Source of the DNA: an archaeon
GTDB taxonomy: Archaea > Nanobdellota > Nanobdellia > Woesearchaeales > UBA9642
Direction: 5' to 3'
DNA length: 64,000 nt
Assembly: GCA_020057295.1 (NCBI GenBank)
Contig: JAGVGF010000001.1
Location: forward strand, 121,468-185,467
Part shown: piece by piece, positions 28,317 to 29,612 of the stretch
Numbering within the stretch: position 1 is the first letter of the stretch
Layout: each line of letters begins with the position of its first letter
Position numbers and translations under genes: made by a program
The notes under the pieces: generated by a model
Databases searched by the model: none
Told to the model about the DNA's origin: nothing
What the model saw: the letters and a program-made list of their open reading frames with translations, nothing else

Positions 28317-28730
28317 ATGTTGAAACTTATTAAGGAACATTGGAGAAAATCGAAAAATTTTCATTCTAGTTTTATTGCATGTTTGTTCGTAAATGTCTTA
28401 TTCGGAATTTATTTGACACAACTTTTAAATCAAACTCAATTACCTATATGGAATGATAATATCATAGGAAACATTACTCTTACAATTTTCTTAGTTATAT
28501 TGCTTGGTGTGGGTTATAAATGGGGCATATCTAACTGTGACGATATTAAAGATACACAAACTTTTTATGATAATTTTTTTATGAGTGTTATGATTGTGAT
28601 TATATCTACAGTGCTGATTGTATATAATCCTTTTCTAAAAGTAAAATTTAATTGGATATTAGGTCTAATGAGTATTTTAATAATTTATTTTCCTTTAAAC
28701 TGGTCATATATTAAATTACGACCTAAATAA
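28317..28730 (+). CDS. Hypothetical polytopic membrane protein
   Basis: 137 aa with four hydrophobic segments. Confidence 0.4.
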   Translation: MLKLIKEHWRKSKNFHSSFIACLFVNVLFGIYLTQLLNQTQLPIWNDNIIGNITLTIFLVILLGVGYKWGISNCDDIKDTQTFYDNFFMSVMIVIISTVLIVYNPFLKVKFNWILGLMSILIIYFPLNWSYIKLRPK

Positions 28731-28790
28731 ACAAGTATAGTGCTACGGAGACTATTCGATAACGCATAAAAATTTCTTAAAATTAAAATA

Positions 28791-28826
28791 TGAGCGCGTG
28801 AGGATTTGAACCCCACTTCTCTCACT
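28791..28826 (-). pseudogene. Orphan tRNA 3' half: anticodon-stem 3' strand, variable loop, T arm, acceptor 3' strand and discriminator
   Basis: Reverse complement: A GTGAG AGAAG TGGGG TTCAAAT CCTCA CGCGCTC A. No matching 5' acceptor strand (GAGCGCG) or D arm lies upstream. A long imperfect hairpin (28841-28904) sits there instead. Confidence 0.5.
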
Positions 28827-28890
28827 GGACATTTGCTCGTGAAGCATATAAATGAAATCATCCAACCATTTAGTGTGAGATGATTTATTT

Positions 28891-29556
28891 ATGAAAGCTT
28901 CACATATCAACAATGTCAAAATTGATGAAGACATCGCATATCTAATTGGTGTTCTACAATCTGACGGATGCATTTATGAATTCTATGATAAGAAACGAAA
29001 TAGATTGCACATAAGATTAAATTTAGGCGTAGGGAAAAATTCTTTACCAATGTCTGAAAAATTTAAACAGACACTTAAAAAATCGCTAAACATCACCGTT
29101 AATATTAGAAAAGCTCCTTCAGCTAAGAATGCGTATGTAATACAAACATCAATCAATAGAACAGCAGAAATATTTAGAGAATGGAAGAAAGAAGAGTTAA
29201 ATAACGAGATAAGTCAAAATATAAAATTATTTGGCGCATACTTAGCAGGTTTAATAGATGGTGACGGACATATAAAAGTAAAACACAATAATGATCGTAA
29301 AATTCCACAATGCATTATAAAAATAGCAGAAGATAGGCCTATGAAGACTTTGCAACAACTTTTATATAAGTTCTTTAATTGTAAATCATATTTCGAGAAA
29401 CATAACAATAGTAAATGCGTAGAAACATGCTTCTATATATCAAAGAAAAACATCGATACATTCTATAAATATGTTTACCCGCATGTTACTATTAAACATA
29501 AAGTAGAAAGATTAGATTGTTTCTTAAAATTAAAAAGTGAGCACTGCAGGATTTGA
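28891..29556 (+). CDS. Free-standing double-motif LAGLIDADG homing endonuclease
   Basis: Two LAGLIDADG motifs are present: IAYLIGVLQSDGCI and GAYLAGLIDGDGHI. The last 19 nt overlap tRNA-Arg on the opposite strand. Confidence 0.85.
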   Translation: MKASHINNVKIDEDIAYLIGVLQSDGCIYEFYDKKRNRLHIRLNLGVGKNSLPMSEKFKQTLKKSLNITVNIRKAPSAKNAYVIQTSINRTAEIFREWKKEELNNEISQNIKLFGAYLAGLIDGDGHIKVKHNNDRKIPQCIIKIAEDRPMKTLQQLLYKFFNCKSYFEKHNNSKCVETCFYISKKNIDTFYKYVYPHVTIKHKVERLDCFLKLKSEHCRI

Positions 29557-29612
29557 ACCCGCGGTCTCCCGGTCCGAAGCCGGGCGTTTTATCCAAACTA
29601 AACTAAGTGCCC
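29538..29612 (-). tRNA. tRNA-Arg (anticodon UCG)
   Basis: Reverse complement: GGGCACT TA GTTT AGTTTGGATA AAAC G CCCGG CTTCGGA CCGGG AGACC GCGGG TTCAAAT CCTGC AGTGCTC A. It forms a full cloverleaf. Confidence 0.85.

Follow-up and report, generated by a model that had tools for sequence, protein, structure and literature searches.

An orphan tRNA-Arg(UCG) end beside a free-standing LAGLIDADG gene as the probable insertion scar of a homing-endonuclease cassette in a woesearchaeal genome

The 64,000-nt stretch of DNA analyzed here (the window) lies on contig C4 of the genome of an archaeon of the order Woesearchaeales (GenBank assembly GCA_020057295.1). Genomes are labeled G### in the following, this one being G000; L### stands for loci and C1-C6 for the G000 contigs. 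The genome comprised 1.2 Mb in six contigs with 31% G+C, a completeness score of 100% and a contamination of 0.46%. Our subject is a free-standing gene for a monomeric, double-motif homing endonuclease of the LAGLIDADG type (221 amino acids, plus strand, 28891-29556) and the two occurrences of tRNA-Arg(UCG) sequence, both on the minus strand, that lie on either side of it. An intact tRNA-Arg(UCG), found by ARAGORN and by Rfam with 65.5 bits, occupied positions 29537-29612, was an outlier allele for the genus and overlapped the end of the endonuclease open reading frame (ORF) by 19-20 nt. On the other side, at 28791-28818, lay an orphan 3' end of tRNA-Arg(UCG), hereafter the stub, identified by its matches to the tRNA-Arg genes of congeners; its 28 nt covered the end of the variable loop, the T arm, the acceptor 3' strand and the discriminator A. 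Between the stub and the start codon the plus strand carried an upstream promoter word CACTGGACA (28823-28831), recognized by its recurrence in related cassettes and before repair genes, a TATA-like box ATATAAAT (28846-28853; read by eye, 14 nt past CACTGGACA and 38 nt before the ATG, with equal spacing in related cassettes) and an imperfect long hairpin around this box and the start codon. A repeat search further revealed a 41-nt direct repeat, 85% identical and with a spacing of 747, which brackets a 747-bp unit. Copy 1 (28773-28813) contained the T loop and the acceptor 3' strand of the stub with an 18-nt trailer. Copy 2 (29520-29560) contained the T loop, acceptor 3' strand and trailer of the intact tRNA-Arg, and its opposite strand encoded the C-terminus of the endonuclease.

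An earlier sequence-only reading of this DNA had described the orphan piece as a tRNA 3' half at 28791-28826, starting with position 38 and the 3' strand of the anticodon stem. A tRNA 3' piece is indeed present on the minus strand, but it had been read 8 nt too long: nucleotides 28819-28826 matched no tRNA-Arg allele and overlapped the promoter word, the reverse complement of which had been taken for the anticodon-stem strand. In the alignment to congener tRNA-Arg, homology to tRNAs began at the AAG before the T stem, near position 46. On the minus strand the stub consisted of the T arm TGGGG-TTCAAAT-CCTCA, the acceptor 3' strand CGCGCTC and the discriminator A, with a T-rich trailer. A strict T-arm scan of the 1.2-Mb genome found just two T arms outside tRNA genes, the stub and one near tRNA-Ala(CGC) on contig C3. 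In an Rfam scan of the region with E values up to 10, the intact tRNA-Arg alone was matched and the stub obtained no score.

The parentage of the stub was clear from the congeners. It agreed with their tRNA-Arg(UCG) at 28/28 positions in G009 and at 27/28 in G007, and at 21/24 only with the adjacent intact tRNA-Arg 700 bp away. By a 99-aa marker G005 (86%), G007 (86%) and G009 (79%) belonged to the closest congeners, and they were also close by Alba/S17e DNA; these are three of the four closest congeners of G000 and all of them carry the stub-type allele. G001 was close as well (84% by the same marker); its tRNA-Arg was not recovered. The intact tRNA-Arg of G000, on the other hand, was at most 79% identical to every congener allele, with differences in every arm. 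From the unlike T-arm and acceptor sequences it had been concluded that the piece is no simple att duplication of tRNA-Arg. Unrelated to tRNA-Arg it is not, being the 3' end of another allele of the very same tRNA-Arg(UCG) gene. Since the stub corresponds to the resident-type allele of the close congeners and the intact gene is divergent, the stub would be the end of the native gene and the working gene would be the newcomer.

This parentage and the position of the break also bear on the other proposal made from the sequence, a split tRNA gene as in Nanoarchaeum. The piece would then be its 3' half, whose transcript would carry a leader and be joined to the separate transcript of a distant 5' half. 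The locus shares with the split genes of Nanoarchaeum equitans that a tRNA 3' portion is encoded away from a 5' portion in a DPANN-type archaeon. The T arm, acceptor strand and discriminator are all intact with a T-rich trailer behind them, and split tRNAs as well as tRNAs rich in introns are known from DPANN relatives. However, a scan of the whole G000 genome found no 5' half combining the acceptor GAGCGCG or a G-U variant of it with a D arm and CTCAC, and no complement of the leader. Homology starts near position 46 and not at 38, so that the break is not at 37/38 as in N. equitans, and the bases upstream belong to the promoter word of the opposite-strand gene. Furthermore, the piece equals the end of tRNA-Arg(UCG), an isoacceptor already present intact 700 bp away. 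We therefore give this proposal practically no credence. Searched with blastn-short against the G000 genome, leader and hairpin gave only AT-rich matches of at most 22 nt, and for the piece itself only T-loop matches and no second copy. All 36 Rfam tRNA matches in G000 were full length, none being a half gene. A permuted tRNA, with its 5' half downstream of the stub, was considered too and nothing in the sequence corresponded to it.

A tally of isoacceptors had been suggested as a check, and for arginine, by ARAGORN and by eye, it gave the adjacent UCG gene, CCU, an intron-containing UCU and, at C4:109653, a candidate for GCG that has a 37/38 intron. The last was called Cys by ARAGORN and is GCG in the reading by eye. 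It belongs to three odd ARAGORN calls in G000 that, by eye, are ordinary tRNAs with 37/38 introns: Pyl(cta) at C4:83944-84060 reads as Gln(CUG), SeC(tca) at C6:47294-47421 as Ser(GCU), and the second Cys(gca) at C4:109653-109772 probably as Arg(GCG).

The endonuclease itself was confirmed as a real gene. The ORF, read before as a 221-aa double-motif LAGLIDADG protein ending within tRNA-Arg, contained the motifs YLIGVLQSDG and YLAGLIDGDG and matched Pfam LAGLIDADG_3 in two stretches (1e-11). In an alignment with seven homologues (A1), the acidic residues D25 and D123/D125 were invariant. An AlphaFold2 model reached a mean predicted local distance difference test of 88.6 and a predicted template modeling (TM) score of 0.87, and Foldseek matched it with a probability of 1.00 to I-PnoMI, E-DreI, PI-PfuI and the I-OnuI family. 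TM scores were 0.63 to E-DreI, an I-DmoI/I-CreI chimera, and 0.64 to PI-PfuI; phmmer gave E = 0.002 to 1mow. The modeled structure has the pseudo-symmetric alpha-beta-beta-alpha-beta-beta-alpha fold in two domains. From the invariant acidic residues and the confident model of a homing-endonuclease fold the enzyme looks intact. It thus resembles I-DmoI and PI-PfuI, archaeal LAGLIDADG enzymes encoded in an intron and an intein, in its monomeric two-domain fold and its catalytic motifs. In contrast to them its gene stands free, outside any rRNA intron or intein, and abuts a tRNA gene in antisense orientation. A family hidden Markov model detected no second copy of the endonuclease family in G000.

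The conserved part of the protein ended around residue 212, and the tail that overlaps the tRNA was not conserved among homologues; judged from this comparison, the overlap is incidental. In G004 (L004:1333-2058) and G008 (L002:2031-2756) the endonuclease frame had no stop before the tRNA and ran through the whole antisense tRNA-Arg, yielding 242 aa with a tail ...GFEP... that comes from the T loop; these tails were not conserved either.

The distribution of the endonuclease among relatives was patchy within a stable neighborhood. The gene order S17e-Alba-tRNA-Arg(UCG) was kept in 10 of the 11 congener loci fetched. A LAGLIDADG gene directly 3' of tRNA-Arg(UCG) and on the opposite strand was present in three of the 12 genomes compared, namely in G000, G008 (68% amino-acid identity to the G000 protein) and G004 (59%); beside tRNA-Arg(UCG) in the other eight congener loci no endonuclease was found. 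The same placement recurred in other families of the order (G118, G209). Relatives thus have an intact tRNA-Arg(UCG) at this site, which speaks for the second idea raised from the sequence, the scar of a homing or recombination event.

G004 was especially informative as to what had been inserted. Just upstream of its intact tRNA-Arg lay a 5' stub with positions 1-35, matching a G006-type allele at 31/37 positions, and beyond the endonuclease promoter lay a 3' stub from about position 51 that matched the same G006-type allele at 21/23. The complete tRNA-Arg between them was of another allele type (B-type). Since stubs of one allele flank a tRNA of a different allele together with the endonuclease, the inserted unit in G004 would be tRNA-Arg plus endonuclease. 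At a further locus, L022, a 3' stub followed directly after the promoter word and was unlike the 3' end of the neighboring tRNA. The break points of the stubs, position 35 and about 51 in G004 and about 45/46 in G000, bracket a candidate cleavage site only.

These stubs also help to judge whether a tandem duplication of tRNA-Arg could have produced the locus. The 5' part of the downstream copy would then have decayed, and the endonuclease would have settled in the spacer later without being the cause. Tandem tRNA duplicates do occur, and the second G000 stub, that near tRNA-Ala(CGC) on C3, has no adjacent endonuclease. The decay model would, however, predict the reverse of what we observed: the stub was 100% identical to the functional allele of a relative and it was the functional neighbor that had diverged by 21%. 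Nor does it fit G004, where 5' and 3' stubs of one allele bracket the other-type tRNA and the endonuclease, or the three independent genomes in which a stub lies right next to the endonuclease promoter. A tandem duplication is accordingly improbable.

Another explanation starts from the direct repeat. The piece could be the attL/attR scar of a virus or plasmid that was driven into tRNA-Arg by an integrase and later mostly deleted, the endonuclease being an unrelated passenger. Archaeal integrative elements target the 3' halves of tRNA genes and leave direct repeats, a 41-nt repeat does flank the unit, and accessory genes (for an Mrr-like nuclease and membrane proteins) lie beyond the stub. Yet the 747-bp unit had no integrase within or beside it, LAGLIDADG being the only ORF family there, and the repeat was just 85% identical. 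Site-specific integration would leave the 5' half of the target unchanged, whereas the intact tRNA differed from the parent of the stub over its whole length, 5' half included. Several genera moreover share this tight layout of tRNA and endonuclease at the corresponding site, and it recurs beside other tRNAs, integrases being absent. An integration scar is thus highly improbable.

The repeat has one more peculiarity. The stub trailer TTTTAATTTTAAGAAA (16 nt) matched the trailer of the endonuclease-linked tRNA at 16/16 positions (window 28773-28790 against 29520-29537), and this linked trailer encodes the last conserved residues of the enzyme. The match suggests either that the site had been occupied once before and vacated again or that gene conversion had taken place between the repeats.

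We favor, with a probability of roughly 0.85, that the locus is the insertion scar of a mobile homing-endonuclease cassette that replaced the resident tRNA-Arg(UCG). The cassette would consist of a replacement tRNA-Arg(UCG) gene and the 3'-adjoining LAGLIDADG gene on the opposite strand with its own promoter, inserted into the resident tRNA-Arg(UCG). The endonuclease presumably cuts endonuclease-free tRNA-Arg alleles between the anticodon and the T stem, and repair would copy the cassette from the donor. What lay beyond the break in the old gene, its last 28 nt and the trailer, would be stranded past the cassette as a dead stub, which may double as a short right-hand homology arm for further homing. 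Because the carried tRNA would maintain the supply of tRNA-Arg(UCG), the insertion should cost little.

Several points weigh against this reading. DNA beyond the stub was not syntenic in relatives, and an empty site flanked on both sides could therefore not be demonstrated. A 5' stub is missing in G000, and the replacement of the whole gene there is deduced from the divergence of the alleles and from G004. Among 300 genomes of the order no closer allele or donor for the intact tRNA-Arg of G000 was found, the best being about 81% identical; a weak match in the unpublished genome G289 plays no part in the argument. The stub trailer TTTTAATTTTAAGAAA was unlike the trailers of endonuclease-free relatives, and a simple one-step model does not predict its match to the linked trailer. 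The hairpin was conserved in G000 and G004 only and absent from more distant cassettes. Finally, cleavage of the tRNA gene is a step that we infer, with the target site bracketed by the break points of the stubs alone. The differences between alleles did not yield the target site: a C for G at the second T-stem position was present in G000 and G008 and not in G004.

The association with tRNA genes extended beyond this locus. A profile scan collected 50 loci of the family in records of Woesearchaeota, Nanoarchaeia, Aenigmatarchaeota, Micrarchaeota and Iainarchaeum, whereas a search of genome contigs with the single protein gave no matches. All nine close homologues (at least 44% identity) adjoined tRNA-Arg(UCG); distant ones adjoined tRNA-His, Cys, Arg(GCG), Trp, Val and others. 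In at least 20 of the 50 loci a tRNA lay within 40 nt of the stop codon, 16 of them found by ARAGORN and four, multi-intron tRNAs, by eye, as against a rough chance estimate for adjacency of about 1% at the tRNA density of G000. The tRNA-Arg genes linked to endonucleases in other genera had one to three insertions, placed by eye at about 35/36, 37/38, 38/39, 46/47, 53/54 and 59/60, while those of endonuclease-free congeners were intronless. These insertions fall into the stretch from the anticodon to the T loop, in which the stubs also broke off, and might confer immunity by disrupting the cleavage site. tRNA-His(GUG) near distant members of the family (L017:1360-1480, L018:95-275) likewise had several insertions, which followed the anticodon loop or lay within or near the T arm; ARAGORN missed both genes.

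Outside the window, G000 contained a second cassette of the same design at C2:65119-65893 (L071). There a tRNA-Trp(CCA) on the minus strand (65820-65893) is followed after 4 nt by an opposite-strand LAGLIDADG gene of 213 aa (65175-65816) that belongs to another LAGLIDADG subfamily and has the promoter CACTGGACA-N13-TATA; beyond the gene there was only a decayed T-loop-like stretch. The second orphan tRNA 3' piece of G000, at C3:97982-98030 on the minus strand (L072), is separated by about 75 nt from the intact tRNA-Ala(CGC) upstream of it. From the anticodon loop to the T stem the piece had 24 nt in common with this tRNA and then diverged, with the acceptor strand GAAGCCC; a small hairpin preceded it and there was no endonuclease gene nearby. 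A parent allele for this piece was not found in 40 relatives.

A further observation concerned the promoter. The module CACTGGACA-N12-14-TATA preceded the endonuclease gene in 17 of the 50 loci of the collection, tRNA-His-linked ones included, and in both G000 cassettes. In G000 it also stood before a 100-aa gene followed by radA, before hef (helicase plus ERCC4 domain), lhr (one mismatch), the gene for a rad50-like ATPase (one mismatch) and that for a priS-like primase, at positions C5:11577, C5:73774, C4:101589, C6:97136 and C1:17821. Of 20 related loci, 19 had retained the word in front of the radA operon. Its form in the genus was the longer CACTTCCCACACTGGACA, which the endonuclease promoter of G004 contained without any difference. 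ATGTCCAGTG at the end of the cassette had been a candidate for a decayed copy of a tRNA anticodon stem or for a recombination site; it was dismissed, since the same word precedes the TATA box of repair genes and of endonuclease genes linked to tRNA-His and tRNA-Trp. The set of CACTGGACA-TATA promoters looks like an undescribed repair regulon, and these shared motifs suggest that transcription of the endonuclease would belong to a regulon for recombination and repair. As its promoter copies the module of recombination and repair genes, synthesis of the enzyme probably coincides with activity of the recombination machinery.

The hairpin, which had been placed at 28841-28904, is real and spans the start codon as described, with coordinates corrected by 1-2 nt to 28839-28903 on the plus strand. 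RNAfold gave -23.0 kcal/mol (z = -3.8 against shuffled sequences) for this structure, which starts 7 nt ahead of the TATA box and ends at codon 5. In G004 the inner arms were different and still paired through compensatory changes (-27.5, z = -4.9). Transcription from the gene's own promoter would begin within the hairpin, so that the start codon stayed accessible. Upstream on the same strand lies a gene at 28317-28730, and no oligo-T was seen on the plus strand between this gene and the hairpin. We tentatively propose that a transcript reading through from 28317-28730 might fold and hide the start codon, which would resemble the control of some phage endonuclease genes. This role for the hairpin is a possibility to which we would not give much weight.

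The closest published analogue is the mobile ORF (mORF) of fungal mitochondria that carries a spare gene end. mORFs created gene hybrids in atp6 of Allomyces macrogynus and in atp6, atp9, cox2 and nad3 of Glomus; a free-standing endonuclease ORF and a foreign gene end are inserted in the 3' part of a host gene and the native end is stranded downstream, the latter being identical or near-identical to that of sister species and the inserted copy divergent (PMC3630166). On the evidence of the alignments our locus bears this mORF-like signature, as the stranded piece matched close relatives (28/28 and 27/28) and the working copy was divergent (at most 79%). Unlike in the fungal case, the target is a tRNA gene in place of a protein-coding one, the endonuclease is read from the opposite strand without in-frame fusion, and the host is an archaeon. 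Furthermore, a whole tRNA gene appears to be carried, at least in G004, and not just a gene end, and the promoter would be borrowed from a repair regulon.

Intronless homing in phages is a second parallel, T4 SegB being a free-standing phage endonuclease in a cluster of tRNA genes. As there, the endonuclease gene of G000 is free-standing beside a tRNA gene, and it would likewise cut the endonuclease-free allele and be inherited with flanking DNA by gene conversion. The phage systems differ in their enzymes, SegB being GIY-YIG and mobE HNH as compared to LAGLIDADG here, and in residing in a phage and not a cellular genome. SegB is also discussed in PMC13096335 and mobE in PMC2790892. Stranded gene stubs or a carried spare tRNA such as we propose here are not known to be described for the phage systems.

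Within the archaea the tRNA-Thr(GGU) locus of Caldiarchaeum subterraneum comes nearest. There, too, a tRNA gene was replaced by a variant copy and a fragment of the old gene was stranded, with an ORF-bearing insertion between them, and the authors saw in the locus a way by which tRNA introns and fragments could arise (Sugahara et al. 2012, PMC3293823). It differs in having a 5' fragment, a 1.9-kb insertion and an ORF on the same strand. This ORF was called a putative recombinase, with a transposable element and a pNOB8-like composition invoked; the insertion was interpreted as an element of the integrase type, and neither LAGLIDADG nor homing was proposed (PMC3293823). In the literature on LAGLIDADG together with tRNA genes or fragments in archaea or DPANN we found no paper describing such cassettes at archaeal tRNA genes. 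For the introns of Asgard tRNAs, a preprint of October 2026 gives no route of arrival, stating that "how they arrive remains open" (10.64898/2026.10.13.758758).

In conclusion, the origin of archaeal tRNA fragments, of introns at odd positions and of split forms is an open question, for which this locus offers a concrete and testable route: a homing endonuclease would target a tRNA gene and bring a replacement copy, and dated stubs would show the allele that was overwritten. Genome annotations should list such stubs neither among tRNA genes nor among the halves of split tRNAs. A far more speculative extension, which we regard as possible and rather doubtful, is that free-standing LAGLIDADG genes form a DPANN-wide guild of tRNA-gene-specific homing endonucleases, each with a spare copy of its target tRNA and wired into the recombination and repair regulon, whose repeated invasion might be a main source of orphan tRNA fragments and odd-position introns in archaea. 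The locus also presents a selfish gene that has the promoter signal of the recombination genes of its host, and this signal may provide a handle on an undescribed archaeal repair regulon.

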